Shown here piece after piece: positions 4,591 through 64,000 of a stretch of DNA of 64,000 nt. Each line of letters starts with the position of its first letter. The first letter of the stretch is position 1. The notes below the pieces were generated by a model. That model was not told the DNA's origin. It saw nothing but the letters and a program-made list of their open reading frames with translations, and made no database searches. The position numbers and the translations under genes were made by a program. This DNA is from an uncultured Clostridia bacterium (GTDB taxonomy: Bacteria; Bacillota; Clostridia; UMGS1883), in contig CAKSNY010000002.1 of assembly GCA_934476455.1 (NCBI GenBank), forward strand, positions 10,689 to 74,688. Reading direction: 5' to 3'.

Positions 4591-4594
4591 AAGT

Positions 4595-5389: not shown

Positions 5390-5395
5390 AACAGG

Positions 5396-5768
5396 GGTTA
5401 TAAGCAGCCTGAACGGTCGCGGCAGCGTATAAGCTGATGAGGAAAGTCCGAGCTACGCAGGACAGGATGCCGGAGAAATCCCGGTGAAGGCGACTTTAAG
5501 GAAAGTGCAACAGAAATAAACCGCCGCACCTTGTGCGGTAAGGGTGGAAAGGCGGGGTAAGAGCCCACCGACATTGCGGTAACGCAGTGTGCCATGTAAA
5601 CCCCATCCGTAGCAACGCCGACAGGATTGGCTTGTCCGGCCTATAATCCGAAGGGCGGCTGGAGCTGTGCAGAGATGCACAGCGTAGACAGATGACCGTT
5701 TCGGGGGTAAGGTGCAGAAAACATCAAGCCCCTATGACAGAACTCGGCTTACAGGGCAGCTTATAACA
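5396..5768 (+). ncRNA. rnpB: RNase P RNA (bacterial)
   Basis: universal P4 strands GAGGAAAGTCCGAGC (5'-side) and ACAGAACTCGGCTTACAG (3'-side); P1 pairing between gttataagcagcctg (5397-5411) and cagggcagcttataac (5752-5767). Confidence 0.85.
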
Positions 5769-5775
5769 TAAAAAG

Positions 5776-5818
5776 GGCGTGCGGCAAAGTGCTTTTATTT
5801 TGCCGCGCGCCTTTTTGC
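5776..5818 (+). terminator. intrinsic terminator downstream of rnpB
   Basis: GC-rich imperfect hairpin ggcgtgcggcaaa...tttgccgcgcgcc followed by ttttt. Confidence 0.55.
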
Positions 5819-5846
5819 ATTCCGGATTTTTTTAACACCCCTTTTA
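5810..5846 (+). repeat. partial copy (3' module) of the multi-copy intergenic repeat element
   Basis: cctttttgcattccggatttttttaacacccctttt matches the 3' module of the copies at 17366-17404, 47887-47923 and 53259-53300. Confidence 0.5.
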
Positions 5847-5938
5847 CGGTAAAATCTTTTAATTTCAGGCATATATTGACTTTTTCTTTGTTGTGTGGTA
5901 TACATAATAGTAGATAAAACTGCAAGGGAGAATAAATT

Positions 5939-33919: not shown

Positions 33920-33993
33920 TCGGAGTGGCGGGACTTGAACCCGCGGCCTCTTGGTCCCGAACCAAGCACGCTACCAAACTGCGCTACACCCCG
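33917..33993 (-). tRNA. tRNA-Pro (anticodon CGG)
   Basis: reverse complement gives CGGGGTGTAGCGCAGTTTGGTAGCGTGCTTGGTTCGGGACCAAGAGGCCGCGGGTTCAAGTCCCGCCACTCCGACCA; anticodon loop TTCGGGA, T-loop GGTTCAAGTCC, encoded CCA. Confidence 0.85.
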
Positions 33994-40796: not shown

Positions 40797-40825
40797 GAAA
40801 ACGTGTACCGAAAGGATGAAGAAAA

Positions 40826-41764
40826 GTGTGGCTTAAAGCGCTTATAATAAGCTTTGCCGTTACGGCGGCTTTTGAACCGATACTTATTCCGTTTTTACAC
40901 AGGCTTAAATTCGGGCAGACAATATTGGAGGACGGTCCCGTATGGCATAAAAAAAAGCAGGGAACGCCGACAATGGGCGGAATAGGCTTTATATTGGCAG
41001 TAACCGTTGCGTCGATGTTTTTTCTGCGTGACGTGCACGACGCGATTATGCTTTTGTGCGGTGTGCTGTTCGGGCTTGTCGGCTTTTTTGACGATTACAT
41101 AAAGGTTATAAAAAAGCATAATCAGGGCTTTACCGCAAAGCAGAAATTTACGTTGCAAACAATTGTAAGCCTTTTGTATGCGATTTATATGTACCTTTTC
41201 GTGGGGCAAACAAAAACCCTTGTGCCTTTTTTGGGCGCAAGAATAGATTTGGGGCTTTTGTATGTGCCGTTTATAATGCTTGTGCTTTTGGCAACGACAA
41301 ACAGCGCAAATCTTACAGACGGGCTTGACGGGCTTGCCTCGGGCGTGGGGGCAACGGTGGCGTTGTTTTTCTGCGCAGCATGCACAAAAACGGGCTTTTT
41401 CGGCGCGGGCGTTGTATCGGCTGCGCTTTGCGGCGGTCTTTTGGGCTTTTTAATCTACAATGCGTACCCCGCAAAGGTGTTTATGGGCGACACCGGCAGC
41501 CTTTTTATAGGCGGCATTATCGCTGCCGTTGCCGTGCGTGCGGGGCTGGAGCTTTTTATAATAATAAGCGCATTTGTATTTTTGTTCGAGGCATTAAGCG
41601 TTATCATACAGGTAACGGTTTATAAAAAAACGAAAAAAAGGGTGTTTAAAATGGCACCCATACACCATCACTTTGAAAAATGCGGGTGGAAGGAAACAAA
41701 GGTCGTTTTGGTGTTTTGCATTGTTACGGCGCTTTTGTGCCTGCTTGGCTACGCGGCGCTTTAG
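40826..41764 (+). CDS. mraY: phospho-N-acetylmuramoyl-pentapeptide transferase
   Basis: NLTDGLDGLA and MGDTGSLFIGG motifs; GTG start. Confidence 0.9.
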   Translation: MWLKALIISFAVTAAFEPILIPFLHRLKFGQTILEDGPVWHKKKQGTPTMGGIGFILAVTVASMFFLRDVHDAIMLLCGVLFGLVGFFDDYIKVIKKHNQGFTAKQKFTLQTIVSLLYAIYMYLFVGQTKTLVPFLGARIDLGLLYVPFIMLVLLATTNSANLTDGLDGLASGVGATVALFFCAACTKTGFFGAGVVSAALCGGLLGFLIYNAYPAKVFMGDTGSLFIGGIIAAVAVRAGLELFIIISAFVFLFEALSVIIQVTVYKKTKKRVFKMAPIHHHFEKCGWKETKVVLVFCIVTALLCLLGYAAL

Positions 41765-41776
41765 AAAGGAGCATTT

Positions 41777-42895
41777 ATGGCAGACAGAAAAAAAAGCTAC
41801 GAAAGAAAAGGTCAGGTTGATTTTATATTGCTTATGGTTATAGTATGTCTGCTTTTGTTCGGGCTGATTATGCTTTTTTCGGCAAGCTCGCCGAAGGCGC
41901 TTCGCGAGGGCAATATATATTCAATTATAATAAAACAGGGCGGTATTTCGCTTTTGGGCTGCTTTTTAATGGCGGCAGCATCCGAGATTGATTATCACAG
42001 GTATAAAAAATACGCGCGTGTTATAATTATACTTACGGGTATTGTTATGTATGTTGTTCCTCTGTTCGGGTTTGCATCGCACGGGGCGCGGCGGCAGATT
42101 GCCGTGGGTCCTATCAGCTTTCAGCCGTCGGAGGTTGCAAAGTTTGCCCTTGTAATATATTATTCGGCGCGTCTTTCGGACAGAAAAACCTCTGACCTGA
42201 AAAATTTAAAAAACCTTGCAAAATATTTCGGAATTTTGGGCATTTATCTGCTTGCCTGCGTTTTGCAAAGCCATATGTCGGCGGCGGTTGTGCTTGCAAT
42301 AATAAGCGTAATGCTTTTATTTGCGGCGGGGCTGTCGGGTAAGCTTATGGGCACTGTTTTTGTTGTTATGCTGCCGCTCGCAACGTGGCTTGTTATGTCG
42401 GAGGAATACCGCCTTAACAGAATTAGGGCGCTGTTTCGCCCGTTTGATTACAGCCGCGATATAGGCTGGCAGATAATACAATCGCTTTATGCGGTTGGCT
42501 CGGGCGGGCTGTTCGGGCTTGGGCTTGGGCAGTCGCGCCAGAAATACCAATACCTGCCCGAGGCGCATAATGACTATATATACGCAATAGCGTGCGAGGA
42601 GCTGGGCTTTATCGGCGGAATAACGATAATTGCGCTGTTTGTGCTTTTCGTATGGCGCGGAATTTCAATAGCGCTTAACGCGCGCGACCGTTTCGGTATG
42701 CTGATGGCATTCGGCATTACGTCAATCGTAGGCGTGCAGATGCTTATAAATATCGGGGTTGTGCTGTCGGTGCTTCCATCTACGGGAATGCAGCTTCCGT
42801 TTTTCAGCGCGGGCGGTACATCAATGCTTATAATGCTTGCGGGAATGGGCGTGCTTTTAAACATTTCCAGAACAAGCAGAGTTAAAAAAATATAG
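41777..42895 (+). CDS. ftsW: SEDS-family peptidoglycan glycosyltransferase (FtsW/SpoVE)
   Basis: 10-TM SEDS protein; QPSE(V/F)AK and downstream conserved loop. Confidence 0.8.
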   Translation: MADRKKSYERKGQVDFILLMVIVCLLLFGLIMLFSASSPKALREGNIYSIIIKQGGISLLGCFLMAAASEIDYHRYKKYARVIIILTGIVMYVVPLFGFASHGARRQIAVGPISFQPSEVAKFALVIYYSARLSDRKTSDLKNLKNLAKYFGILGIYLLACVLQSHMSAAVVLAIISVMLLFAAGLSGKLMGTVFVVMLPLATWLVMSEEYRLNRIRALFRPFDYSRDIGWQIIQSLYAVGSGGLFGLGLGQSRQKYQYLPEAHNDYIYAIACEELGFIGGITIIALFVLFVWRGISIALNARDRFGMLMAFGITSIVGVQMLINIGVVLSVLPSTGMQLPFFSAGGTSMLIMLAGMGVLLNISRTSRVKKI

Positions 42896-42911
42896 CGAGG
42901 TAAAATAATAT

Positions 42912-44012
42912 ATGAAGGTACTTCTCACAGGGGGCGGTACGGCGGGGCATATAAACCCGGCGATTGCCGTTGCAAACTATATAAAGGAAAAAGAAAAAAA
43001 CGCACAATTTCTTTTTGTGGGAACAAAGCACGGGCTGGAGAAAGAGCTTGTCCCGAAAAGCGGGTACGATATAAAATATATCGACGTTATGGGGCTTAGG
43101 CGAAAGCTTACGGCAGAGAATATAGCTGTGTTTTTTAAATACATAAAAAGTATGGGCGACGCGGGAAAAATAATAAATTCCTTTAAGCCCGACATAGTGA
43201 TAGGAACGGGCGGCTATGTTTGTGCCCCCGTTATTAAAGCGGCGCACAGGAAAAAAATACCCACGCTTATTCACGAACAAAACGTTTTTCCCGGCCTTGC
43301 CGTAAAAATGCTTGCAAAGGATGCCGACGTTACGGCGGTAAGCTTTAAAGAAACAATGAATATGATACGCGCAAAAAAAATGATACTTACGGGAAACCCG
43401 CTGCGCCCCGATTTGTTTTTGCCGGTTGATAAAAAAGACATTGCACGCGGCTTCGGGTTTGACGATAAGCCCATTGCACTGATGTTCGGCGGGTCGCTCG
43501 GCTCGGCAAAAATGAACGACGCGCTTGTAGAGCTTTTGTCCCACGGGATAGAGCGCTGCAACCTGATTGCGGCAACCGGTGAAAGATATTACGACGAGGT
43601 AGCCGCCCGCCTTAAAAAGAGAGGGCTTAATGTTAAAGAACTTAATAATGCGGCTGTTTTGCCGTATATTTACAATATGGAAAAAATTTTCGGAGCTGCC
43701 GATATAATAATCGGTCGTGCAGGCGCTATAACGGTAAGTGAAATTACGGCAATGGGAAAGGCGGCAGTGCTTATACCAAGTCCGAATGTGGCACACAATC
43801 ACCAGGAATACAACGCGCGCTATCTTGAAAAGAACGGTGCCGCTGCGGTAATTTCCGAATCGGAATTAAGCGGCGAAAAGCTGCTTTTAAAAACGGCAGA
43901 AATACTAAAAAACGAAAACTCACTTGAAAAAATGCGTGCGGCGTCAAAGGCTCTCGGAATAAAAGATGCCTGCGAAACGATATATAAAACGATAAAGGGA
44001 CTTGTACGGTAA
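42912..44012 (+). CDS. murG: UDP-GlcNAc:undecaprenyl-PP-MurNAc-pentapeptide GlcNAc transferase
   Basis: MKVLLTGGGTAGHINPAIAVA N-terminus. Confidence 0.9.
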   Translation: MKVLLTGGGTAGHINPAIAVANYIKEKEKNAQFLFVGTKHGLEKELVPKSGYDIKYIDVMGLRRKLTAENIAVFFKYIKSMGDAGKIINSFKPDIVIGTGGYVCAPVIKAAHRKKIPTLIHEQNVFPGLAVKMLAKDADVTAVSFKETMNMIRAKKMILTGNPLRPDLFLPVDKKDIARGFGFDDKPIALMFGGSLGSAKMNDALVELLSHGIERCNLIAATGERYYDEVAARLKKRGLNVKELNNAAVLPYIYNMEKIFGAADIIIGRAGAITVSEITAMGKAAVLIPSPNVAHNHQEYNARYLEKNGAAAVISESELSGEKLLLKTAEILKNENSLEKMRAASKALGIKDACETIYKTIKGLVR

Positions 44013-44088
44013 GAATCGTTTATGGACAGTATAATCATTTATTTTCGAAAATTCGTATTTGTAACCGCCCGCACCCTATGGGCATAGT

Positions 44089-45390
44089 ATGTTATTAGAA
44101 AACATCGGAAACGGTGGCACAGCTTGTTTTGGGGGTGTGGTTTTGGGAAAATACATAATTAACGGCAGAAAAAAACTGTCGGGTACGGCGCGCGTTCACG
44201 GTGCAAAGAACGCTGTTTTGCCGATTATGGCGGCTACCGTGCTTTCGGGGGATATGTGCCGCATATACGATTGCCCGAACCTTAGCGACGTAAGACATAC
44301 AATGCGCATTTTAGAGATGCTGGGGTGCAGCGTTAGCCTTGAAAACTCTGTTCTTACGATAAATTCAGCTTCGCTTTGTTCCTCCGACATCCCGGAGGAG
44401 CTTATGAGTGAAATGCGCAGCTCGATAATATTTTTGGGCGCGCTTACGTCGGCAATGGGCAGGGCGTGTCTTTCGGCGCCCGGCGGCTGCGAGCTTGGAA
44501 ACAGACCCATAGATTTGCACATAAAGGCTCTGCGCGAAATGGGTATGACAATAAAAGAGGAAAACGGATACCTTCTTTCCGACGCCTCCCAAATGCACAG
44601 CGCGGATATTCATTTAAGCTTTCCGAGCGTCGGTGCAACGGAAAACATTATTCTTTCCGCCGTAAAGCTGAGCGGTATTACAACAATAAGCAATGCCGCC
44701 AAAGAGCCGGAAATAGTAGACCTGTGCGACTTTTTAAATACAATGGGTGCGGATATAACGGGCGCTGGAACACCGATTATAACAATACACGGCAGGGCGT
44801 ATCTGCACGGCACGGATTATAAAATAATTCCCGACAGAATTGCCGCAGCTACGCTGATGTGTGCGGCGATGACGACAAAAAGCGAAATAGAGCTTGAAAA
44901 CGTGCGCAGCGACCATCTTGATGCCGTTGTATACGCTCTTCGGGAGAGCGGCGCGCGGATAGAATTTTTCCGTGACAGAATGTACATAGCGCCGCCGCGG
45001 AAAATTCTTCCGGTAAGCATAATAAAAACACAGGTGTACCCGGGCTTTCCGACAGACGCGCAATCGGTTGCAATGGCGTACCTTTGCGGTGCGTGCGGAA
45101 CAAGCGTAATTGTTGAAAACCTGTTTGACAGCCGCTATAAAATAATCCCCGAGCTTATAAAAATGGGCGCGGATATTTTACAGGACGGCAGGGTATGCGT
45201 TGTAAAAGGCACACCCATACACGGCGCACACGTGCGTGCAATGGATTTGCGCGGCGGCGCGGCGCTTACGATTGCGGCGCTCGGCGCGGACGGGGAAAGC
45301 ACGGTAGAAAATGTTCACTATATAGAGCGCGGGTATGACGGCTTTCACAAAACGCTTGCGCTTTTGGGTGCAGATATAAAAAAGGTGTGA
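44089..45390 (+). CDS. murA: UDP-N-acetylglucosamine 1-carboxyvinyltransferase
   Basis: RVHGAKNAVLPIMAAT ... active-site Cys region LSAPGGCELGNRPIDLH; ATG 44089 lacks an RBS, TTG 44143 (after GGGGGTG) may be the true start. Confidence 0.85.
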   Translation: MLLENIGNGGTACFGGVVLGKYIINGRKKLSGTARVHGAKNAVLPIMAATVLSGDMCRIYDCPNLSDVRHTMRILEMLGCSVSLENSVLTINSASLCSSDIPEELMSEMRSSIIFLGALTSAMGRACLSAPGGCELGNRPIDLHIKALREMGMTIKEENGYLLSDASQMHSADIHLSFPSVGATENIILSAVKLSGITTISNAAKEPEIVDLCDFLNTMGADITGAGTPIITIHGRAYLHGTDYKIIPDRIAAATLMCAAMTTKSEIELENVRSDHLDAVVYALRESGARIEFFRDRMYIAPPRKILPVSIIKTQVYPGFPTDAQSVAMAYLCGACGTSVIVENLFDSRYKIIPELIKMGADILQDGRVCVVKGTPIHGAHVRAMDLRGGAALTIAALGADGESTVENVHYIERGYDGFHKTLALLGADIKKV

Positions 45391-45395
45391 GAAAA

Positions 45396-46160
45396 ATGGC
45401 ACAAAAGAGATTTGTTCTTAAAAGAAAACAAAAAAAGCAGGTCGCGGCGCTGTCTGTAATTATACTGGCGGCGGCGATTGCGGCAATTATTATGCTTACG
45501 CCTGCATTTAACATACAGAAAATAACGGTTATGGGAAATTCCGTGCTTGATAAAAAAGACATTATACAAAGCTCGGGAATAGTTACGGGTGTAAACATTT
45601 TCGGCATAAGCACAAGGGAAGCCGAAAAAAACATTGAAGAAATGGGCTATGTTGACGGTGCAAAGGTAAAGCGCCGTCTGCCGGGAACGGTTGAAATTAC
45701 CATAGAGGAGGCGGTAGGCGTTGCAAAGCTTTCCGCCAAGGACGGGTTTCTTATAATTACTGCCGACGGCAGAGCCGTGGAGCTTATAACCGATACAAAA
45801 AAACAAAAGGATAAACAAAACGATAAACAAAACGTTCCTGTTATAAAAGGACTGAAAAATGTTAAATATAAGATAGGCAAAAAGATTACATCGGATGACA
45901 CGGAAAAGCTTGACACCCTTTTTACCTGCCTGCGTGAGTTTTCAAAAAATTCGGTAATATTTAATATGACACAGATTGATATATCGCAAAGCTCCGCCGT
46001 TAAATTTTTATATAACGGCGGCAAGCTTACGGTAAACTGCGGCTCTGTGGAAAAGCTTGATTATAAAATGGAGTGCTTTGCACCCATTTTGGAGCAGATA
46101 GGCGACAATCCCGAAGGATATGTTGACCTTGAAAGGCTTATTTACCGCAGCAAACAATAA
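45396..46160 (+). CDS. ftsQ: cell division protein FtsQ/DivIB (POTRA domain)
   Basis: single N-terminal TM then POTRA (IQKITVMGNSVLDKKDI) ; position in dcw cluster. Confidence 0.6.
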   Translation: MAQKRFVLKRKQKKQVAALSVIILAAAIAAIIMLTPAFNIQKITVMGNSVLDKKDIIQSSGIVTGVNIFGISTREAEKNIEEMGYVDGAKVKRRLPGTVEITIEEAVGVAKLSAKDGFLIITADGRAVELITDTKKQKDKQNDKQNVPVIKGLKNVKYKIGKKITSDDTEKLDTLFTCLREFSKNSVIFNMTQIDISQSSAVKFLYNGGKLTVNCGSVEKLDYKMECFAPILEQIGDNPEGYVDLERLIYRSKQ

Positions 46161-46187
46161 TAATTTGTAAACAAATAAAAATTTTTC

Positions 46188-46216
46188 TTGAAAGTGCGCC
46201 CGTTTCGGTGTATTAT
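46188..46216 (+). promoter_or_regulatory. ftsZ-proximal promoter (-35 TTGAAA, 17 nt, -10 TATTAT)
   Basis: hexamers at 46188-46193 and 46211-46216. Confidence 0.45.
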
Positions 46217-46269
46217 ATAATATATATCTTTAGATTTATAATTATATTACACATAGAGGAGGATTTCCG

Positions 46270-47325
46270 ATGAGAATGGAATATGCTGACGAGCTGGGCG
46301 CAGCTCAGAAAATTAAAGTCGTGGGTGTCGGCGGCGGCGGAAACAACGCCGTAAACCGAATGGTTGAGGCAGGAATTAAGGGCGTGGAGTTCATCGCCAT
46401 AAATACCGATAAACAGGCGCTTACAAAGAGCCAGGCAAGCCAGAAAATACAAATAGGCGATAAGCTGACAAAGGGTCAGGGTGCAGGCGGCAAGGCGGAA
46501 ATCGGCAAAAAAGCGGCAGAGGAAAGCCGCGGCGAGATTGAGCAGGTTTTAAAGGATGCCGATATGGTATTTGTAACGGCAGGTATGGGCGGCGGCACAG
46601 GTACGGGCGCTGCACCTATCGTTGCGGGTATTGCAAAGGAGCTTGGCGTGCTTACCGTGTCTATAGTTACAAAGCCGTTCGGCTTTGAAGGACGCCGCCG
46701 TATGATTCAGGCGGAGGAAGGCATAGAGCAGCTTAAGGGCAATGTTGATACGCTTGTTGTTATTCCCAATGACAGGCTGCTTGACATCAGCAACAACAAG
46801 ACAAGCCTGATAGACGCCTTTAAGGACGCGGACGAGGTTTTGCGCCAGGGCGTGCAGGGTATTTCCGATTTGATTGTCGGCGCAGGTCTTATAAATGTAG
46901 ACTTTGCCGACGTTACCACCGTTATGAAAGACGCAGGGCTTGCGCATATGGGTATCGGCCGTGCAAGCGGCGAAAACCGTGCGGAGGAGGCTGCGCGTAT
47001 GGCAATAGAAAGCGCGCTTCTTGAAACAACGATTGACGGCGCTACGGGCGTTCTTATAAATATTATCGGCGGTGCTAACCTTAATCTTCACGAAACGAAC
47101 GCAGCAGCACAGCTTATCGGTGATTGTGTCGATGAAGACGCAAACGTTATTTTCGGTGCGGCAATTGACGAAAGCCTTGAGGATGACATTATAATAACCG
47201 TTATCGCAACAGGGTTGGACTCCTCCAAAAAAGAAAAAAAGGATGATGCCTTTTTCGGGAATATATCTGCTGCTGATGATGATTTAGACGTTCCCAGCTT
47301 TTTGCAGAAAAACAATTTTGATTGA
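46270..47325 (+). CDS. ftsZ: cell division GTPase FtsZ
   Basis: [23 protein letters not shown] tubulin signature; AGAGGAGG RBS. Confidence 0.95.
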
Positions 47326-55091: not shown

Positions 55092-55120
55092 TTGACAAAG
55101 CGCGAAAAATGTTTTATTAT
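55092..55120 (+). promoter_or_regulatory. promoter of leader ORF / BCAA-related operon (-35 TTGACA, 17 nt, -10 TATTAT)
   Basis: hexamers at 55092-55097 and 55115-55120. Confidence 0.5.
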
Positions 55121-55151: not shown

Positions 55152-55265
55152 ATGAACACTGTATTTTATGTGATTAACATAATTGTCATTAACGCTATTA
55201 TTCTAATTGCCGTTACAGCAAAAAAGAATAGCGCTGTTTGTCGTGTGTGCAGAAAGGCGGCATAA
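55152..55265 (+). CDS. 37-codon Ile/Val-rich leader peptide (candidate attenuation leader) or small membrane peptide
   Basis: MNTVFYVINIIVINAIILIAVTAKKNSAVCRVCRKAA: 7 Ile + 6 Val in 37 residues; AAGGA RBS 9 nt upstream; followed 25 nt later by strong terminator. Confidence 0.5.
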   Translation: MNTVFYVINIIVINAIILIAVTAKKNSAVCRVCRKAA

Positions 55266-55289
55266 TCCGTTTTTTTGATATAAGGTTAT

Positions 55290-55325
55290 AACGCCTGCGG
55301 CAATTAGCGCCGCAGGCGTTTTTTA
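55290..55325 (+). terminator. intrinsic terminator/attenuator between leader ORF and operon
   Basis: perfect 12-bp stem aacgcctgcggc / gccgcaggcgtt with 7-nt loop, followed by tttttt. Confidence 0.65.
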
Positions 55326-55349: not shown

Positions 55350-56723
55350 ATGCGAAAAATCGGAATTTCGGACATTACACTGGCAACGGCAGGTGCAAGA
55401 GAGCTAAGCTTTAAGGAAAAGGTAGAAACGGCAAAGCAGCTAAGCCGTGCCGAAACGGATTGTATAGAGATGATGCCGCTTACAGGCTCAAAGGCAGACA
55501 TTATCTTTTATCATACTGTGTCCGGACTTACCGACAGGGAAATATGCTGCCCGATTTCTACGGAGGAGGGGCAGACACAGAAAGCTGCGGAGGCGCTTAA
55601 AAATGCGAAAAACGCTTCTGTAAATGTTTGCGTGCCGTCCTCCACCGTGCAGATGGAATATATAGGAAAGAAAAAGCCCGCGGCAATGCTTGCCGCTATG
55701 GAAAGTACCCTCGCAGAGGCGGCAGCGTGCTTTAAAACCACAGAGGTTACTTTTACGGACGCAACACGTGCCGATATAGGGTTTTTAACGCAGATGACAA
55801 AGAAGGCTGCGGAGGCGGGCGCATCGCGCATAACCGTGTGCGATGATGCGGGCGATATGCTGCCGAAAGAATTTAAAGAGCTTGTGAAGCTTGTTAAAGA
55901 GGCTGCGGGAAAAACGCCGGTAGGGGTGAAATGCTCTAACGAGTGCCATATGGCGGCAGCCTTTATGGCAGAGGCGATAGAAGAAGGTGCAGACTATGTA
56001 AAGACAACGGCGCTCGGGAAAGAGGCGGTTTCCCTTAGAACGGCGGCGGGGCTTATAAGCTCTAAGGGGAGCGCACTGGACTGCTTTTGCGGCGTTAATA
56101 TGACGGTGCTTTCGGATTGCAGCGACAAGATATTGCAGGCTGCCGAGGGTAAGGTAACCCCCAAAGCCTCTTTGAACGCGGGAAGCTTTTTTACCGGCAG
56201 TGAGGATATAACAGCCGTTTCACAGGCGGTAAAGGATTTGGGCTATGACCTTAGCGGCAACGATATTGCGGCGGTATACAGCGAATTTTTAAAGACCGCC
56301 GAAAAGAAGAAGGTTTCGCTGCGCGACCTTGACGCGATAGTTGCCGGCTGTGCAATGCAGGCGCCGCCGACCTTCAGCGTACAAAGCTTTGTTGTTACAA
56401 ACGGAAATCTTATAACACCGATGGCAAATATGACCATTGTAAAAAACGGCGAGGCGCTTTCCGGCTGCAGCGTGGGCGACGGACCGATTGACGCGGCGTT
56501 TCGCGCTATTGAGCAGATTGTAGGGCACCATACGGAACTGGACGATTTTCAGGTACAAGCCGTAACGCGCGGGCGCGAGGCGCTCGGCTCGGCAATTGTT
56601 AAGCTGCGTTCGGGCGGTGTTTTGTATTCGGGCAAGGGCATATCAACCGATATAGTGGAAGCGAGCATAGCTGCGTACATAAGCGCACTTAACAAAATAT
56701 ATTACGAGGAGGAAACAAAATGA
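55350..56723 (+). CDS. LeuA/homocitrate-synthase-family protein with degenerate catalytic barrel and intact C-terminal LeuA regulatory (dimerisation) domain
   Basis: C-terminal GDGPIDAAFRAIEQI...GKGISTDIVEASIAAYISALNKI matches LeuA allosteric domain; catalytic motifs replaced: LRDGEQ -> LATAGARE, HxHNDxG -> KCSNECH. Confidence 0.65.
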   Translation: MRKIGISDITLATAGARELSFKEKVETAKQLSRAETDCIEMMPLTGSKADIIFYHTVSGLTDREICCPISTEEGQTQKAAEALKNAKNASVNVCVPSSTVQMEYIGKKKPAAMLAAMESTLAEAAACFKTTEVTFTDATRADIGFLTQMTKKAAEAGASRITVCDDAGDMLPKEFKELVKLVKEAAGKTPVGVKCSNECHMAAAFMAEAIEEGADYVKTTALGKEAVSLRTAAGLISSKGSALDCFCGVNMTVLSDCSDKILQAAEGKVTPKASLNAGSFFTGSEDITAVSQAVKDLGYDLSGNDIAAVYSEFLKTAEKKKVSLRDLDAIVAGCAMQAPPTFSVQSFVVTNGNLITPMANMTIVKNGEALSGCSVGDGPIDAAFRAIEQIVGHHTELDDFQVQAVTRGREALGSAIVKLRSGGVLYSGKGISTDIVEASIAAYISALNKIYYEEETK

Positions 56724-59179
56724 AGCTTTCCTTTTCAACAAACTATCAAAAAACAGACGTAATGCAGGCGCTTGCCGCCGCGAACGAATACGGGTTTCAG
56801 GGGGTGGAAATTCACGATATAAGCGAAACCGAGAATTATGAAATTTCCGACGTGCGGCAAAAAACGGCACAGTACCGCGTGCATATATCGTGCATAGATA
56901 CCGCGGCGGATATATCGAAAGATTTTGACAAGGCATACGCGGAAGCGGTCTGTGCGATAAATAAGGCGGCAGAGCTGCACTGCCCGTACGTAAGGCTGCA
57001 TGCAGAGAGTGAGGATAATGTTTCAGCCTTTTTGCAAAAAACGCTTCCCGATGCCGAAAAAAATAAAATTGTGCTTCTGATAGAATCGTGCGGGGTATAC
57101 GGCGACACGTCAAAGCTGAGAGGGCTTTTGGAGCATTTCGCGTCGGACAGTTTAGGCGCTTTGTGGGATTTTTACCACCCGTACAGAAGCGCGGGCGAAA
57201 CGCCGGACGTCACCGTTAAAAATCTGGGTGCGTACATAAAGCACGTTCATATAAAAGATTCGGATGAAACGGGCGCGTATACCCTTATAGGCGAGGGCAC
57301 AGCCCCTATGGAGGATTTTTTCGGCGCGCTGAGGTCTGTTAATTACGACGGCTATATATCCCTTGAATGGAACGAAAAATGGGCAGACGAGGTAGGCGCC
57401 TGCGAGATAGCGTTTCCGCATTTTGTAAGCTTTATGAATAGGTTTGACGAAACGGCAACCGCAAAGCGCAGCCTTTATCAAAACAAGTCGCAAACGGGTA
57501 AATTTATATGGAAAAAGGACGCGCTTATCGAAAAAACCTTTTCACAGGTGCTGGATTGCTGCGTAGAGGAATTTCCCAACCAAACGGCGATAAGATATAC
57601 CACGCTTGACTATACGAGAACATACAGCCAATTCCGCGATGATGTGGATGAGTTTGCACGGGCGCTTGTTTCCGTAGGCGTTACGGCGGGCAGCCACGTT
57701 GCGGTATGGGCAACAAACGTGCCGCAGTGGTACATTGCGTTTTGGGCGGTTACGAAAATCGGCGCGGTGCTTGTCAGTATGAACACAGCCTACAAAATAC
57801 ACGAGGCAGAGTATTTGTTAAAGCAGTCGGACACGCACACGCTTATTATGACAGAGGGGTATCGGGACTCTAACTACAGAGAAATAATGCAAAAGCTTTG
57901 CCCCGAAACGGAAAACACACCTAAAAACGCCCCGCTTCACGCAAAGAGACTGCCGTTTTTAAGAAATATAATTACAGTAGGTTTTGAAATGCACGGCGCA
58001 ATGACATGGGACGAGGCGCGCGCCGGAGCCGCCGAAACACCGATAGAGGAAATTCACCGCCGCGCCGCTGCGGTAAGCGTGCACAGCGTTTGCAATATGC
58101 AGTATACAAGCGGTACGACGGGCTTTCCGAAGGGCGTAATGCTTACGCATTACAACATAGTAAACAACGGTAAATGTATAGGCGACAGAATGGATCTTTC
58201 CACAGCAGACAGAATGATGATACAGGTGCCGATGTTCCACTGTTTCGGAATGGTGCTGGCGATGACAGCCGCGATGACACATTCGGCAACAATTTTGCCG
58301 CTGCCGTACTTTTCGCCGCGTTCGGCACTTTCGTGCATTGAACACGAGCATATTACGTGCTTCCACGGCGTACCTACGATGTTTATTGCACTTTTGGAAA
58401 ATCCGGATTTTGAAAAGACGGACTTTTCATATATGCGCACCGGCATAATGGCGGGGTCGCCCTGCCCGGTGTCCGTAATGCAGGATGTTTTAAATAAAAT
58501 GAATATGCGCGAGATAACCATTGTTTACGGACAGACAGAGGCTTCGCCGGGCTGCACGATGAGCAGCACTGACGATTCCATCGAAACGCGCGTGGGAACG
58601 GTGGGAAGGGCACTTCCCGAGATAGAATGTAAAATAACAGACCCCGAAACGGGCGAGGAAATGCCCGTAGGCGAGGTTGGCGAGTTTGTGGCGCGCGGCT
58701 ACAACATTATGAAAGGCTACTACAAAATGCCGCACGAAACCGCTGCCGCAATAGATAAGGACGGCTGGCTGCATACCGGCGATTTGGCGCTTAAAACGGC
58801 GGACGGAAACTTCTGCATAACAGGGCGCCTTAAGGATATGATAATACGCGGGGGAGAAAATATTTACCCCAAGGAAATAGAGGAATTTATCTACACGCAC
58901 CCCTCTGTAAAGGACGTACAGGTTATCGGCGTGCCGGACGAGCAATACGGCGAGGAAATAATGGCATGCGTTATACTTAAAGAGGGCACCGCCCTTACCG
59001 CTGACGAGCTGAAGGGCTATATTGCGGAAAATATGGCAAAGCACAAGGTGCCGCGGTATATAGATTTTGTAGAGGAGTTCCCCATGAATGTAGCGGGCAA
59101 AATTCTTAAATATAAAATGCGCGAGGACGCAATAGAGCGCCTCGGCATAAAAAAAGCAGAAGGAATAACAGCGCAATAA
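56720..59179 (+). CDS. fusion protein: N-terminal xylose-isomerase-like TIM-barrel (sugar-phosphate isomerase/epimerase family) + C-terminal AMP-forming acyl-CoA synthetase
   Basis: N-terminal ~245 aa with WDFYHP...HVHIKD...SLEWNE motifs; C-terminal AMP-binding motifs YTSGTTGFPKGV, GYGQTE, WLHTGDLA, GRLKDMIIRGGENIYP; ATGA-coupled to upstream gene; strong GAGGAGG RBS. Confidence 0.75.
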   Translation: MKLSFSTNYQKTDVMQALAAANEYGFQGVEIHDISETENYEISDVRQKTAQYRVHISCIDTAADISKDFDKAYAEAVCAINKAAELHCPYVRLHAESEDNVSAFLQKTLPDAEKNKIVLLIESCGVYGDTSKLRGLLEHFASDSLGALWDFYHPYRSAGETPDVTVKNLGAYIKHVHIKDSDETGAYTLIGEGTAPMEDFFGALRSVNYDGYISLEWNEKWADEVGACEIAFPHFVSFMNRFDETATAKRSLYQNKSQTGKFIWKKDALIEKTFSQVLDCCVEEFPNQTAIRYTTLDYTRTYSQFRDDVDEFARALVSVGVTAGSHVAVWATNVPQWYIAFWAVTKIGAVLVSMNTAYKIHEAEYLLKQSDTHTLIMTEGYRDSNYREIMQKLCPETENTPKNAPLHAKRLPFLRNIITVGFEMHGAMTWDEARAGAAETPIEEIHRRAAAVSVHSVCNMQYTSGTTGFPKGVMLTHYNIVNNGKCIGDRMDLSTADRMMIQVPMFHCFGMVLAMTAAMTHSATILPLPYFSPRSALSCIEHEHITCFHGVPTMFIALLENPDFEKTDFSYMRTGIMAGSPCPVSVMQDVLNKMNMREITIVYGQTEASPGCTMSSTDDSIETRVGTVGRALPEIECKITDPETGEEMPVGEVGEFVARGYNIMKGYYKMPHETAAAIDKDGWLHTGDLALKTADGNFCITGRLKDMIIRGGENIYPKEIEEFIYTHPSVKDVQVIGVPDEQYGEEIMACVILKEGTALTADELKGYIAENMAKHKVPRYIDFVEEFPMNVAGKILKYKMREDAIERLGIKKAEGITAQ

Positions 59180-59200: not shown

Positions 59201-60268
59201 ATGCTTAACATTAAGGTAGAAAAAACAAAAAATCCTAAAACAAAACCGGCAAAGGGTGAAAAGCTGGGCTTCGGTAAAATTTTTACAGACCATATGTTTG
59301 AAATGGATTATACCGAGGGAAAGGGATGGCACGATGCAAGAATAGTGCCGTTTCACAATCTGGAGCTTTCGCCCGCAGCTATGGTTTTTCATTACGGACA
59401 GGAGATGTTCGAGGGGCTTAAGGCATACCGCGGGGCAGACGGAAAAGCGCGGCTTTTCCGCCCGGATATGAACGCAAAGCGTACTACAAACACAAACAAG
59501 CGCCTTTGCATACCGTATCTCCCCGAGGAGGATTTTGTGGAGGCTGTAAAGGCGGTTGTTAAGGTTGATGAGGACTGGATTCCGACAGAGGAGGGGACCT
59601 CGCTTTATATAAGACCGTTTATTATAGCTACGGACGAATTTTTGGGCGTTGCACCCGCGCAGACATACAAATTTATGGTAATTCTTTCACCGAGCGGCGC
59701 GTACTACGAAAGCGGGCTTGCACCGGTGGGCATCTGGGTAGAGGATGAATATGTGCGTGCGGTGCGCGGCGGAATGGGCTTTGCAAAAACGGGCGGTAAC
59801 TACGCCGCAAGCCTGATTGCGCAGGTGAAAGCACACGATGACGGATATTCGCAGGTTTTGTGGCTTGACGGTGTGGAGCAGAAATACATCGAAGAAGTGG
59901 GCGCAATGAACATCTTTTTCAGGATTGACGGAAAGGTTGTTACACCGAAGCTTAACGGAAGCATCCTGCCGGGGGTTACGCGTGACAGTGTGCTTCATCT
60001 TTGCAGGGCAATGGGCTTTGAAACAGAGGAGCGCCGCATAAGCATTGACGAGCTTATTGCCGCGCAAAAGGAAGGAAAGCTTGAGGAATGTTTCGGCACG
60101 GGAACGGCGGCAGTTATTTCACCTGTGGGCAAGCTGCGCTACAAAGATGACGTTATGACGATAAGCGGCAATAAAATAGGCGAGCTTACGCAAAAGCTTT
60201 ACGATAAATTAACTGGTATTCAATGGGGAAAATGTGAGGATGAGTTCGGATGGAGCGTAGTTCTTTAA
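59201..60268 (+). CDS. ilvE: branched-chain amino acid aminotransferase
   Basis: 355 aa; FGKIFTDHMF, GQEMFEGLKAYR, PLP-fold class IV motifs. Confidence 0.85.
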   Translation: MLNIKVEKTKNPKTKPAKGEKLGFGKIFTDHMFEMDYTEGKGWHDARIVPFHNLELSPAAMVFHYGQEMFEGLKAYRGADGKARLFRPDMNAKRTTNTNKRLCIPYLPEEDFVEAVKAVVKVDEDWIPTEEGTSLYIRPFIIATDEFLGVAPAQTYKFMVILSPSGAYYESGLAPVGIWVEDEYVRAVRGGMGFAKTGGNYAASLIAQVKAHDDGYSQVLWLDGVEQKYIEEVGAMNIFFRIDGKVVTPKLNGSILPGVTRDSVLHLCRAMGFETEERRISIDELIAAQKEGKLEECFGTGTAAVISPVGKLRYKDDVMTISGNKIGELTQKLYDKLTGIQWGKCEDEFGWSVVL

Positions 60269-60939
60269 AAAGAATAAATGTTTTCTGCGGGCATTACGGC
60301 AGCGGAAAAACAAACATCGCGGTAAATTACGCGCTGATGCTTAAAAAGCGCTTTGAAAGGGTTGCCATAGCAGACCTTGACATTGTAAACCCGTATTTCA
60401 GAACAAAGGACGCGGCGGATATTCTTAAGCAAAACAGTATCAGGGTTATATCATCGCCGTATGCAAACTCAAACGTAGATACGCCCGCACTTCCGGCAGA
60501 GATTTACTCCGTCACGGACGAGGGCGACCTGCACGCCGTTATAGACGTCGGCGGTGACGACCGCGGGGCACTTGCCCTCGGTCGATTTAAGGAAAACATA
60601 GAGAGAGCGGGCGGCTGCAATCTGTTTTTTGTTATAAATATGTACAGACCCTTAACAAAAACACCCGAGGAAGCCTTTTGTGTGCTGAAAGAAATCGAAG
60701 CGGCGTGCCGTATGCGCTTTGATTATATAATAAACAACTCAAACCTGGGCGAGGCAACCACCGCGCACGACATAGAACGTTCGTTTGAATATGCGCGTGC
60801 GGTGGAAAGCCTTACGGGGCTTAAAACGGCATTTACAACAGTTAAAACAGAGCTTTACCCGAAAATAAAAGGCAAAGCGGAAAATATTATACCAATTAAG
60901 CTTTTTGTAAGACAAAGCTGGGAAGAAAGGAATGAGTAA
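60250..60939 (+). CDS. P-loop NTPase of unknown function (Walker A GHYGSGKT, DVGGDD switch-like motif)
   Basis: Walker A near N-terminus, hhhhDxxG motif VIDVGGDD; 19-nt overlap with ilvE; embedded between ilvE and oxidoreductase genes. Confidence 0.5.
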   Translation: MERSSLKRINVFCGHYGSGKTNIAVNYALMLKKRFERVAIADLDIVNPYFRTKDAADILKQNSIRVISSPYANSNVDTPALPAEIYSVTDEGDLHAVIDVGGDDRGALALGRFKENIERAGGCNLFFVINMYRPLTKTPEEAFCVLKEIEAACRMRFDYIINNSNLGEATTAHDIERSFEYARAVESLTGLKTAFTTVKTELYPKIKGKAENIIPIKLFVRQSWEERNE

Positions 60940-60940
60940 T

Positions 60941-61144
60941 ATGGCAAAGGTAACGTTTGACAGCGAGCGCTGCAAGGGCTGCGGCTTGTGCGTGCACGCC
61001 TGTCCGAAAAATATTGTGGCATTGGGAAACACGCTTAACGCACGCGGGTATCACAGCGCAGAGGTAACGCAGCCCGAAAAATGCGTAGGGTGTGCGTTCT
61101 GCGCATCGATGTGTCCCGATTGCGTAATAACGGTTGAAAGATAA
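60941..61144 (+). CDS. 2-oxoacid:ferredoxin oxidoreductase delta subunit (2x[4Fe-4S] ferredoxin)
   Basis: two CxxCxxCxxxCP motifs (CKGCGLCVHACP, CVGCAFCASMCP), 68 aa. Confidence 0.7.
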   Translation: MAKVTFDSERCKGCGLCVHACPKNIVALGNTLNARGYHSAEVTQPEKCVGCAFCASMCPDCVITVER

Positions 61145-61161
61145 GGAAAGGATTGAAAAAT

Positions 61162-62223
61162 ATGGCTGAAAAAGTTTTGATGAAAGGAAACGAAGCTTTG
61201 GCAGAGGCTGCAATAATGGCAGGCTGCCGCCACTACTTCGGATATCCTATCACCCCGCAGACAGAGGTTGCGGCGTATATGGCAAAAAGAATGCCTAAAA
61301 TCGGCGGAACATTTCTTCAGGCGGAAAGCGAAATTGCCGCAATAAATATGGTTATCGGTGTGGCTTCGACGGGGAAAAGGGCGATGACGTCAAGCTCCAG
61401 CCCCGGCATAAGCCTTAAAAGCGAAGGTATATCGTATCTTGCGGGGTGCGATTTGCCCGCGCTTATTGTAAACGTTCAGCGCGGCGGTCCCGGGCTCGGC
61501 GGAATACAGCCGTCGCAGTCGGACTATTTCCAGGCAACGCGCGGCGCCGGGCATGGAGATTTTCACCTGATAGTGCTTGCACCGGCAAGCGTGCAGGAAA
61601 TGGTAGAGCTTGTTTTCCGCGGTTTTGACCTGGGCGAAAAGTACCGTATGCCCGTTATGCTTTTGTCAGACGGCACAATGGGGCAGATGATGGAACCCGT
61701 AGTGCTTGAACAAAAGGAAATCGTACAATATGATAAATCGTGGGCGCTTACGGGAACGGACGGCGTGCGCAAGCCAAACATTGTAAATTCGCTTTTCTTA
61801 AAGCCCGAAGAACTGGAAAAATTCAACTTTGCGCGGTACGAGCGTTACAAAAAAATCGAAGAAACCGAAACCATGTACGAGGAATATAAAATGGAGGACG
61901 CGGAAATTTGCGTCGTAGCGTTCGGCGTGGCGTCACGCGTTTCAAAAAATGCGATAGACGAGGCGCGTGCCATGGGCATAAAGGTAGGTATGATAAGACC
62001 CATCACCCTTTGGCCTTTCCCGAAAAAAGCTCTTTTGAAGGCTTCGGAAAAAGTTAAGAAATTTATTTCGGTAGAGCTTTCAATGGGGCAAATGACAGAG
62101 GATATTTCACTGGCTGTAAAATGCCGCCGCGAGGTGCTTCTTTGCAACCGCACCGGCGGAATGATACCCACAACGGCAGAGGTTGTGGCAAAAATAAAAG
62201 AAGCTTGCGGAGGTGCAGAGTAA
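61162..62223 (+). CDS. 2-oxoacid:ferredoxin oxidoreductase alpha subunit
   Basis: KorA/VorA/PorA-like N-terminus (LMKGNEALAEAAIMAGCRHYFGYPITPQTE). Confidence 0.8.
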   Translation: MAEKVLMKGNEALAEAAIMAGCRHYFGYPITPQTEVAAYMAKRMPKIGGTFLQAESEIAAINMVIGVASTGKRAMTSSSSPGISLKSEGISYLAGCDLPALIVNVQRGGPGLGGIQPSQSDYFQATRGAGHGDFHLIVLAPASVQEMVELVFRGFDLGEKYRMPVMLLSDGTMGQMMEPVVLEQKEIVQYDKSWALTGTDGVRKPNIVNSLFLKPEELEKFNFARYERYKKIEETETMYEEYKMEDAEICVVAFGVASRVSKNAIDEARAMGIKVGMIRPITLWPFPKKALLKASEKVKKFISVELSMGQMTEDISLAVKCRREVLLCNRTGGMIPTTAEVVAKIKEACGGAE

Positions 62224-62966
62224 TGGTAGTTTTTGAAAAGCCTAAGGCGCTTACGGACGCGCCGCTTCATTACTGCCCGGGCTGTACGCACGGCATTATA
62301 CACAGGCTTGTTGCACAGGCAATAGACGAGCTTGGCATTGCGGGGCGTACGATAGGCGTAGCGTCGGTAGGGTGCAGCGTGTTTGCATATAATTATTTTA
62401 ACTGTGATATGGTACAGGCAGCGCACGGGCGCGCACCTGCGGTGGCAACGGGCGTAAAGCGCAGCGACCCCGAAAAAAACATCGTCTTTACATATCAGGG
62501 CGACGGCGACCTTGCCGCAATAGGAACAGCGGAAACCGTACACAGTGCGGCACGCGGCGAAAACATAACGGTAATATTTGTAAACAATGCCATTTACGGT
62601 ATGACGGGCGGGCAGATGGCACCCACAACGCTGCCGGGGCAGAAAACGCAGACATCGCCGTACGGGCGTGACGTCAGTACAGTGGGCTATCCCGTAAAGG
62701 TATGCGAACTGCTTTCAAATGTGGACGGTGCGGCGTATCTCGAACGCGTGGCGGTCAACAATCCGGCAAACGTTAAAAAGGCAAAAGCGGCAATTAAAAA
62801 GGCGTTTTCAAACCAGCTTGAAAACAAGGGCTTTTCTCTTGTAGAGGTGCTTTCAACCTGCCCCACAAACTGGGGATTGGAACCGCAGAAGGCGCTTAAC
62901 TGGCTGGAAGAAAATATGATTCCGTATTACCCGTTGGGTGTTTACAAGGATAAATATGCAAAGTGA
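62223..62966 (+). CDS. 2-oxoacid:ferredoxin oxidoreductase beta subunit (TPP-binding)
   Basis: YCPGCTHG and TPP motif GDGD...N; start ATG overlaps alpha stop (TAATG). Confidence 0.8.
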   Translation: MVVFEKPKALTDAPLHYCPGCTHGIIHRLVAQAIDELGIAGRTIGVASVGCSVFAYNYFNCDMVQAAHGRAPAVATGVKRSDPEKNIVFTYQGDGDLAAIGTAETVHSAARGENITVIFVNNAIYGMTGGQMAPTTLPGQKTQTSPYGRDVSTVGYPVKVCELLSNVDGAAYLERVAVNNPANVKKAKAAIKKAFSNQLENKGFSLVEVLSTCPTNWGLEPQKALNWLEENMIPYYPLGVYKDKYAK

Positions 62967-62976: not shown

Positions 62977-63519
62977 ATGAATAAAGAAATACTTATAGCG
63001 GGCTTCGGCGGTCAGGGGATTTTGTTTTCGGGGAAATTTCTTGCTTACGAAGGTCTTATAGAAAACCGCAATGTAAGCTGGCTGCCGTCTTACGGACCGG
63101 AAATGCGCGGCGGCACCGCAAATTGCAGCATTATTTTAAGCGACGGCGCTATAGGCTCGCCGATTGTTACAAATCCTGACATACTTATAGCGATGAATTT
63201 ACCCTCGCTTGACAAGTACGAAGCGGAAACAAAGCCGGGCGGCGAAATATTTGCGGAAAGCTCGCTCATTGAAAGAAAGCTCAGCCGCACAGACGTTTCG
63301 GGCTATTACATTCCCGCAACGCATCTTGCCGACGAAAACGGGCTTTCGGGTCTTGCAAATATGATTATGCTGGGATATATGATTAAGAAAAGCGGCGTAA
63401 TTCCGACAGAAAATATAGACGCCGCACTCTCAAAGGTTGTGCCGCCGTCAAAGGCACACCTTATCGAAAAGAACAGGCAGGCAATAGATATAGGCTATAA
63501 CTACGGAGAGGAGAAGTAA
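62977..63519 (+). CDS. 2-oxoacid:ferredoxin oxidoreductase gamma subunit
   Basis: ILIAGFGGQG N-terminus; GTGAGGTG RBS. Confidence 0.8.
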   Translation: MNKEILIAGFGGQGILFSGKFLAYEGLIENRNVSWLPSYGPEMRGGTANCSIILSDGAIGSPIVTNPDILIAMNLPSLDKYEAETKPGGEIFAESSLIERKLSRTDVSGYYIPATHLADENGLSGLANMIMLGYMIKKSGVIPTENIDAALSKVVPPSKAHLIEKNRQAIDIGYNYGEEK

Positions 63520-63525
63520 GAAAAA

Positions 63526-64000
63526 TGAACGAGCAGCTAAAAGATATAGGTATGCGGCTTATGTCCCTGCGCGAGGACTGCGAATATACTATAGAGCAAA
63601 TGGCACAAAAGCTGAACCTTGATACGGAGGCGTACAAGGCTTACGAGGCGGGCAACCGTGATTTCTCTTTCAGCTTTGTATATAACTGTGCAAACATATT
63701 GGGCGTGGATGTGCTTGATATAATAAGCGGCGAAGCCCCCACACTTTCAAAGGCGTGTATGGTGGAATCGGGCAAGGGCTACAGCGTGAAGCGCGAGCAT
63801 GAGTATGATTACCGACATCTTGCATATACCTTCAGAAACAAAAAGGCAGAGCCGTTTTTGGTAACGGTAAACCCCGATGACGAAACACCCGTTCTTCACG
63901 GACACGAAGGGCAGGAGTTTAACTATGTTTTGTCCGGAGAGATGACTATATACATAGGCGATATTTCATATGAAATGTCTAAGGGTGACAGCATCTATTT
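63526..64000 (+). CDS. XRE-family HTH + cupin-domain transcriptional regulator (3' end beyond window)
   Basis: N-terminal HTH (MRLMSLREDCEYTIEQMAQKLNL), C-terminal cupin motif (HGHEGQEFNYVLSGEMTIYIGD). Confidence 0.65.

Follow-up and report, generated by a model that had tools for sequence, protein, structure and literature searches.

In the 64,000-nucleotide stretch of DNA from an uncultured Clostridia bacterium analysed here (contig CAKSNY010000002.1; hereafter the window), a single gene encodes an 819-residue protein (56720..59179, plus strand, ATG start) in which an N-terminal xylose-isomerase-like TIM barrel is fused to an adenylate-forming ligase, and a gene for a LeuA-like partner protein lies directly upstream. 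We propose that this fusion protein is probably the leucine-branch isovalerate-CoA ligase of a reductive-carboxylation salvage pathway, in which the LeuA-like protein would gate the ligase and the barrel would act as an accessory; the pathway assignment itself, from isovalerate through isovaleryl-CoA and 4-methyl-2-oxopentanoate to leucine, carries slightly more confidence. Conversion of isovalerate to leucine by carboxylation has been traced by labelling in ruminococci and rumen contents, according to a later account of that work (Allison et al., 1962, 1966, cited in PMC7356843). The pathway is known physiologically, and our literature searches returned no paper that assigns genes to the isovalerate activation step or mentions a barrel-ligase fusion; three features set out below appear to be undescribed, namely the joining of barrel and ligase, the pseudo-LeuA protein as its obligate partner and a T-box regulon with three branches.

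The original prediction, made from the letters of the window, had placed a TIM barrel and a complete AMP-forming ligase in one 819-residue protein, and Pfam bears this out with three domains above their cutoffs: AP_endonuc_2 at residues 18-219 (E = 1.2e-26, 94 bits against a cutoff of 31), AMP-binding at residues 282-668 (E = 7e-89, 299 bits against 29.9) and AMP-binding_C at residues 719-794 (E = 9e-21, 75 bits against 24.5). On the plus strand, the barrel (residues 1-245) corresponds to 56720..57454, a junction segment (residues 246-281) to 57455..57562, the N-terminal domain of the ligase to 57563..58723 and its C-terminal domain to 58874..59101, and the strand opposite the open reading frame (ORF) contains many stops. 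The core motifs of the ANL superfamily are present and invariant in 33 homologs, namely the A3 motif YTSGTTGFPKG (462-472), the A5 motif YGQTE (603-607), TGD (686-688, within TGDLA at 686-690), the hinge GRLKD (702-706), which stands just ahead of the C-terminal domain, and the A10 lysine K794. YTSGTTGFPKG, GDLA, the hinge arginine and the C-terminal lysine had been named correctly beforehand; 'GYGQTE' had been misquoted, the sequence reading IVYGQTE (601-607). Judged by these motifs, the ligase is an AMP-forming acyl-CoA ligase of the ANL superfamily. Its best curated family is NF009233 (PRK12583, a generic fatty acid CoA ligase family), which covers residues 266-810. In the junction, the columns of G260, W264, K265, K266, L269, K272 and T273 are unchanged across homologs, the stretch from about residue 260 (GKFxWKKDxLIEKTFSQVLD) is conserved and the NCBIfam PRK12583 alignment begins at residue 266; by alignment, the stretch from about residue 260 is part of the N-terminal end of the ligase.

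The fusion did not arise from a frameshift or an error of assembly, since it is kept in protein clusters and in genomes. We examined the best-scoring 120 clusters at 90% identity, and all 120 carry the same three Pfam domains, with 67-72% identity after the self-match and lengths of 800-832 aa. For genomes, we scanned a one-genome-per-species collection with an alignment of the barrel, which returned relatives that the single barrel sequence had not (its patterns were too specific). At least 598 genome stretches matched, and the best 80 were taken as loci (numbered L below) with flanks of about 9 kb, 42 of them spanning at least 15 kb. In these 80 genomes the barrel runs directly into the ligase wherever the contig was long enough, and the 69 complete fusion ORFs measure 689-904 aa, with one of the 69 shorter than 750 aa. 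The original prediction would have been overturned by two separate genes or by a fusion that was widespread and already characterised; the fusion is contiguous, and it is widespread but not characterised. Its claim that no characterised enzyme combines these domains stands as well, given that full-text literature searches gave nothing relevant and that the sole source name for the clusters of this family is 'AMP-binding protein'.

Nearly all of the best 80 carriers are metagenome-assembled genomes from rumen, gut and faeces, mostly of Oscillospiraceae, Acutalibacteraceae, Faecousia, Ruminococcus and other Clostridia. Non-Firmicutes carriers among these 80 are eight Lentisphaeria/Victivallales (L023, L026, L031, L034, L036, L037, L043 and L052) and one member of the Thermoguttaceae (L024), in which the LeuA-like gene and the fusion gene are found as a pair without a T-box and without IlvE or Vor genes nearby. 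The ligase domains of these non-Firmicutes pairs keep 72-76% identity to that of the window, which points to horizontal spread of the pair among gut and rumen anaerobes.

The strongest association of the fusion, one that the original prediction had not mentioned, is with its LeuA-like partner (55350..56723, plus strand), a 457-residue protein in which Pfam recognises an HMGL-like barrel (84 bits) and a LeuA allosteric (dimerisation) domain (LeuA_dimer, 108 bits). In all 79 loci with upstream DNA, the fusion gene is immediately preceded, in the same orientation, by a LeuA-like gene of some 460 codons, whose stop codon overlaps the start codon of the fusion by 4 nucleotides (ATGA) in 47 of them. 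The window has the same overlap, together with a GAGGAGG ribosome-binding site within the 3' end of the LeuA-like gene. The partner resembles LeuA and CimA in its layout of HMGL-like barrel plus LeuA_dimer, whose C-terminal domain binds leucine or isoleucine in those enzymes, and it is tied to leucine supply by the T-boxes described below. It differs from them in lacking the metal-binding aspartate, both metal-binding histidines and the GEQ motif, and it falls far below every LeuA, CimA and homocitrate synthase cutoff (best 231 against 532 bits, NCBIfam). In LeuA the divalent metal and the 2-oxoacid are bound by an HxH motif and by DTTLRDGEQ, which in solved LeuAs stands as FDTTLRDGEQ immediately ahead of the first aligned helix. 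At the latter position the window protein has SDITLATAGA and most of the partner family has D-x-T-L-R-[EKQ], with GEQ gone; the HxH position is K-C-S in the window and E/V-C-S/N in the family. Across 76 orthologs, the metal-binding aspartate is variable, both histidines are replaced and the arginine is mostly kept. We know of no member of the LeuA lyase superfamily that can do without the three metal ligands, and their loss rules out a normal condensation by the partner. What is retained is the C-terminal regulatory domain, the best-conserved region of the protein (mean column identity 0.7-0.8), and, in most orthologs, the substrate arginine and several barrel motifs of LeuA, including DATR and D-x-x-G.

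On this pattern of loss and retention, the partner is probably a pseudoenzyme or regulatory subunit. A more specific reading, to which we give even chances, is that it is a leucine-sensing, non-catalytic subunit, as suggested by the lost catalytic residues, the retained allosteric domain and the strict co-translation, and by a parallel with HisZ and HisG. In that system, ATP phosphoribosyltransferase uses a catalytically dead paralog of HisRS as its histidine-sensing subunit. Like HisZ, the LeuA-like partner is a paralog devoid of catalytic residues that strictly co-occurs with the enzyme it would regulate, and in both cases a disabled pathway-enzyme paralog is encoded with the first enzyme of an amino acid supply route; the proteins are unrelated, so that the likeness is one of analogy and not of membership, and any complex or allostery in the present pair is putative. 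Databases name the partner family 'hypothetical protein' (NCBI) or, in one JGI entry, '2-isopropylmalate synthase', a label that could lead a metabolic reconstruction to infer de novo leucine synthesis. We set aside one 577-aa representative protein (P0201), which combines a LeuA-like fragment with part of the barrel and pieces of the ligase, as probably chimeric, whether through a frameshift, gene calling or assembly; were it a true fusion of all three, it would speak for a physical association.

The link to leucine comes from the leaders of the pair in related genomes, the strongest clue to function and another that the original prediction had missed. Rfam finds a T-box (RF00230) immediately upstream of the LeuA-like gene in all ten loci scanned (95-119 bits; gathering score 93), and the specifiers read from four of the alignments are CUG, CUG, CUC and CUG. 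With a profile built from the Rfam matches we located 72 T-boxes across the loci, and all 37 that lie 40-254 nt upstream of a LeuA-like gene carry a leucine specifier (CUG in 20, CUC in 17). T-boxes turn genes on when their cognate tRNA is uncharged, and the leucine specifiers ahead of the pair therefore mean that it is induced by leucine shortage; in these relatives, the genes are thus under the control of the amino acid that the proposed pathway would supply.

The same loci encode one or two extra ligases, 24-26% identical to the ligase domain of the fusion, behind T-boxes with isoleucine (AUC, 21 cases) or valine (GUC or GUA, 10 cases) specifiers. MbcS is the best curated match (417-429 bits, under the equivalog cutoff) of these paralogs and of a 561-aa ligase that the window organism encodes on the source contig past the window. 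MbcS of Staphylococcus aureus is, like the fusion in our proposal, an AMP-forming ligase for exogenous short branched-chain acids, but it is a stand-alone protein and feeds lipid synthesis; the purified enzyme activates 2-methylbutyrate and isobutyrate, with isovalerate and butyrate as poor substrates (PMC10026030). The fusion differs from MbcS in belonging to another branch of ligases (best match PRK12583), in its N-terminal barrel and in its obligate LeuA-like partner. As MbcS uses isovalerate poorly, this acid is left for a third and different ligase, the fusion. The data are consistent with a division of labour in which the alpha-branched acids 2-methylbutyrate and isobutyrate lead to isoleucine and valine through MbcS-like ligases and the beta-branched isovalerate leads to leucine through the fusion, and we infer the isovalerate-CoA ligase function from the leucine T-boxes, the MbcS-like paralogs of the isoleucine and valine branches and the poor use of isovalerate by MbcS. 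In one locus (L062, 2002-6889, minus strand), the isoleucine- and valine-controlled ligases are themselves fusions of about 754-762 aa, made up of an XRE-type helix-turn-helix (HTH) domain, a cupin domain and an MbcS-like ligase, and the valine-controlled fusion is followed by ATPase and oxidoreductase genes; in the window organism, HTH-cupin is a separate gene upstream of the 561-aa ligase (window 63525-64000 plus L001 14806-17086). The HTH domain on these ligases recalls enzyme-repressors of the BirA type, in which a DNA-binding domain is carried on a ligase.

The genes for the remaining steps follow the fusion gene in the window, all on the plus strand. They encode a 355-aa branched-chain amino acid aminotransferase IlvE (59201..60268; NF009897, 506 bits against a cutoff of 307; Pfam Aminotran_4), a 229-aa P-loop ATPase (60250..60939; weak ParA/CbiA/Mrp-like matches), a 67-aa ferredoxin-like subunit with two CxxCxxCxxxCP (4Fe-4S) motifs (60941..61144), the VorB-type alpha subunit of a 2-oxoacid:ferredoxin oxidoreductase (61153..62223, with a gene call that starts at 61162; NF005507, 539 bits against 399) and, by Pfam, its beta subunit, which binds thiamine diphosphate (62223..62966), and its gamma subunit (62977..63519). 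The XRE-type HTH-cupin protein mentioned above (63525..64000) is cut by the window end, and the 561-aa ligase comes after it. An acyl-CoA-forming enzyme, a VorB-type oxidoreductase and IlvE, the components of the pathway delineated by Allison, are therefore encoded together in the window. The order of fusion, IlvE and oxidoreductase block is repeated in L011, L013-L015, L038, L057, L061 and L085; at the other loci, the oxidoreductase block is divergent or outside the fetched flank. IlvE comes immediately after the fusion in the window, as it does in about 19 loci, and among the 42 loci of at least 15 kb, 15 have IlvE and 18 have the Vor alpha subunit in the flank. The P-loop ATPase gene directly precedes the ferredoxin and oxidoreductase genes in most loci that have them, and its product could serve in maturing the iron-sulfur clusters of the oxidoreductase.

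The proposed sequence of events is as follows. When leucine is scarce, the LeuA-like partner and the fusion would be made together by translational coupling, and the ligase domain would convert isovalerate, ATP and CoA to isovaleryl-CoA. The VorB-type oxidoreductase would then carboxylate isovaleryl-CoA with reduced ferredoxin and CO2 to 4-methyl-2-oxopentanoate (2-oxoisocaproate), which IlvE would transaminate to leucine. The partner would sense leucine and control or gate the ligase much as HisZ controls HisG, and the barrel, to judge from its conserved residues, probably catalyses a metal-dependent accessory reaction that is tied to the ligase.

The barrel has the attributes of PF01261, that is, the domain score, an eight-fold beta/alpha barrel and a Glu-Asp-His-Glu set of predicted metal ligands. 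In the 33-homolog alignment, E122, H175, H177, D180 and E216 are invariant and D150 is nearly so; E122, D150, H177 and E216 fall at the C-terminal ends of the predicted strands 118-122, 145-150, 173-178 and 212-215, and the metal-site residues line up with their counterparts in Art22 and MJ1311. Stand-alone relatives, about 265 aa long and 32-35% identical, have the same metal-ligand set and also have E30, W149, E160, W217 and W221 in common with the barrel; the neighbours of three of them (P0169, P0206 and P0186) were uninformative, being housekeeping genes or a glycosyltransferase. Two distant barrel-ligase fusions (P0180 and P0147) adjoin acyltransferase genes and are preceded by promoter-like non-coding DNA, with neither a LeuA-like gene nor a T-box. 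In the longer representatives of the barrel family, each C-terminal partner that BLAST identified is such a ligase, and several representatives gave no match past the barrel. From the stand-alone relatives, the partner-less fusions and these C-terminal partners, we conclude that the barrel is tied to the ligase, has kept an ancestral active site and is older than the pairing with the LeuA-like protein.

Searches among the relatives of the barrel did not assign it a substrate. Its scores lie below the curated cutoffs of fructoselysine 3-epimerase, IolO, hydroxypyruvate isomerase and 2-oxo-tetronate isomerase (22-40 bits against 300-465), a sequence search of the PDB gave best matches of just 28-31 bits, and a literature search on Art22, the closest solved barrel, gave nothing relevant. 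The barrel is 15-26% identical to the barrels of the ketose 3-epimerase, IolI, AsbF, YcjR and Art22 group and below all of their subfamily cutoffs; none of that group is fused to a ligase, and the fusion barrel has no sugar-metabolism genes nearby. A precedent for fusion of such a barrel to a second enzyme is PDB entry 5hmq, in which a xylose-isomerase-like barrel is joined to a 4-hydroxyphenylpyruvate-dioxygenase-like domain. Every characterised relative that we know of abstracts a proton beside a carbonyl or performs a metal-assisted hydrolysis, which makes enolisation of a 2-oxoacid and hydrolysis of an acyl-adenylate or thioester the candidate reactions. The original prediction had offered the barrel as a second catalytic site or as a dock for the oxidoreductase. 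The first idea gains from the invariant Glu-Asp-His-Glu set, common to the stand-alone relatives, and falls short of proof; on the conserved residues, we rate the odds that the barrel is an active metal enzyme as balanced. The second was dropped, because the oxidoreductase genes vary as neighbours and occur in the flank of just 18 of the 42 loci of at least 15 kb.

Alternatively, the barrel might have no activity and play a structural or docking role, either in binding the LeuA-like partner or in forming oligomers. The barrel (40-59% identical to the window across the loci) and the partner (35-65%) do diverge faster than the ligase domain (64-81%), and the HTH-cupin module that the isoleucine and valine ligases carry at the equivalent position looks non-enzymatic, suggesting that the N-terminal modules on these ligases are regulatory. 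We nevertheless consider an inactive barrel unlikely, since a metal set and surrounding residues that are invariant, and identical in stand-alone relatives, would be unusual for a structural domain, and since barrel-ligase fusions exist without the partner. A bolder version of the proposed isovalerate-CoA ligase, put forward here tentatively and itself doubtful, is a gated salvage enzyme in which the disabled LeuA paralog binds leucine, and perhaps also the isobutyl group of substrate or product, and acts through the metal-containing barrel to switch or proofread the ligase, the barrel being an active enzyme with a reaction new for its fold, such as the hydrolysis of wrong straight-chain acyl-adenylates. 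If this is true, such hydrolysis would prevent the butyrate and valerate that abound in the gut from becoming the toxic leucine analogues norvaline and norleucine.

Several observations weigh against the role in leucine salvage that we propose. Neither a barrel nor a LeuA-like partner is required simply to activate isovalerate, so that part of the system is left unexplained, and by the sequences of the two partner-less fusions (P0180 and P0147) the barrel-ligase architecture extends beyond leucine synthesis. With 680 bits, the ligase misses the 832-bit cutoff of PRK12583, its best curated family, which means that its specificity is not given by sequence, and a PDB sequence search with the ligase found generic relatives only, from which no substrate can be assigned. 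The PDB search likewise gave no significant solved relative of the partner's regulatory domain with which its putative leucine pocket could be compared. A full-length AlphaFold model (mean predicted local distance difference test score 66, predicted template modelling score 0.52) is too poor to judge domain packing, with low confidence at residues 252-271; the weakness probably stems from the shallow 33-sequence alignment, in which every member lies near the query. Many loci, among them all of those from Lentisphaeria and the one from Thermoguttaceae, lack a recognisable leader, and their 9-kb flanks contain no genes for IlvE or Vor. Finally, the window has no T-box at Rfam gathering scores, its leader ORF is rich in isoleucine and valine and not in leucine, and the attenuation mechanism considered for this leader rests on its likeness to other leaders.

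That leader begins with a promoter-like site (55092..55120, plus strand; TTGACA, 17 nt, TATTAT), which has 11 of 12 consensus matches and is a pattern match only. It is followed on the same strand by a 37-codon ORF, MNTVFYVINIIVINAIILIAVTAKKNSAVCRVCRKAA (55152..55265), with 7 isoleucine, 6 valine and 1 leucine codons, which is called as a 37-aa gene in L002 and holds the nucleotide block AGCGCTGTTTGTCGTG, common to 11 related leaders. An intrinsic-terminator-like hairpin with a T-run (55290..55320, plus strand; 12 pairs, 9 of them G-C) ends 30 nt before the start codon of the LeuA-like gene, and the leader region has a fold z-score of -3.46. Similar leaders, with ORFs rich in leucine, isoleucine and valine, occur in ten other loci. 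The block AGYGCTRTTTGTCGTG is present in all eleven leaders, although in L005 and L020 it lies outside the frame of the ORF, and a CTA, a rare leucine codon, is conserved in at least nine of the eleven. The ilv operons are governed by leader-peptide attenuation, and by analogy with their leaders the window ORF may encode an attenuator leader peptide. A leader of this type (55152-55325 in the window) replaces the T-box of other clades and may be an undescribed type of attenuator.

The absence of IlvE and Vor genes beside many pairs also bears on what the ligase activates. The LeuA-like protein and the barrel could form a new catalytic unit, with the ligase activating another acid, for example a 2-oxo or hydroxy acid made or used by the barrel, and with the leucine skeleton built by undescribed chemistry. 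The intact, ancestral metal site of the barrel would fit such a scheme, as would its weak matches to hydroxypyruvate isomerase and 2-oxo-tetronate isomerase, which are enzymes of small oxo-acids, and the substrate arginine, DATR and D-x-x-G that most partner orthologs retain. We regard it as improbable all the same, because the partner family has lost all three of the metal ligands of LeuA, the pair has no other conserved pathway genes beside it, and the three-branch pattern with MbcS-like isoleucine and valine ligases fits plain activation of three branched-chain acids.

The missing neighbours would equally suit a use of isovaleryl-CoA mainly as a primer for iso-branched membrane fatty acids and not for leucine, as MbcS does in Staphylococcus aureus (PMC10026030). 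This appears more improbable still, given that a T-box for uncharged tRNA-Leu signifies control by amino acid supply and not by lipid, that IlvE directly follows the fusion in the window and in about 19 loci, and that the partner bears the allosteric domain of a leucine pathway enzyme; in its favour, branched-chain acids are lipid precursors too in rumen bacteria. A catabolic direction, in which leucine would be transaminated and oxidised to isovaleryl-CoA and the ligase would run in reverse to free isovalerate and conserve energy, draws on the reversibility of IlvE and the oxidoreductase and on the known fermentation of branched-chain amino acids to branched-chain acids by gut Clostridia, but it is very improbable, as induction on leucine starvation is the opposite of what a degradation operon needs and AMP-forming ligases strongly favour thioester formation, fermenters normally using ADP-forming synthetases or a phosphotransacylase with a kinase.

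If the fusion is the isovalerate-CoA ligase, the old isovalerate-to-leucine pathway becomes genetically testable, with the barrel and the partner as its two unexplained components. Fibre degraders of rumen and gut depend on branched-chain acids, the 'isoacids' that are sold as feed additives, and with the module and its isoleucine and valine counterparts each of the three branches gains genes and RNA switches that can be tested. These would improve the metabolic reconstructions for hundreds of Oscillospiraceae that are uncultured, and the system may offer a new pseudoenzyme regulator and an orphan metal-dependent barrel for study.

A parallel route from acid through acyl-CoA and 2-oxoacid to amino acid is known for arylacetates, which employs indolepyruvate ferredoxin oxidoreductase, a phenylacetate-CoA-ligase-like enzyme and an ACT-domain protein. 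It resembles the pair in that a small amino-acid-binding protein is co-encoded, and differs in its ligase family, in its oxidoreductase subunits, in having an ACT domain in place of a LeuA-like protein and in having no barrel. Divergent clusters with an indolepyruvate-type oxidoreductase and further ligases lie beside the pair in L005 (399-6130), L017 (about 2300-5100) and L018 (about 2100-6400), and the cluster in L005, with its phenylacetate-CoA-ligase-like enzyme and ACT-domain protein, is of the arylacetate kind. T-boxes precede the ligases of these clusters in L018 (tyrosine, UAC) and L017 (threonine, ACG); the tyrosine T-box and the divergent clusters suggest a salvage of arylacetates to aromatic amino acids under like control. 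Further T-boxes in the flanks have tryptophan (UGG; L007, 2244-2444, minus strand) and asparagine (AAC; L053, 15492-15711, plus strand) specifiers. Elsewhere in the window we noted a bacterial class A RNase P RNA (5401-5767, plus strand, 271 bits), one tRNA gene (33920-33993, minus strand) and a cell-division and cell-wall cluster (39369-47325) with murE-like, mraY, ftsW, murG, murA-like, ftsQ-like and ftsZ genes, as judged by eye from their translations, which fits a Clostridia-type chromosome.

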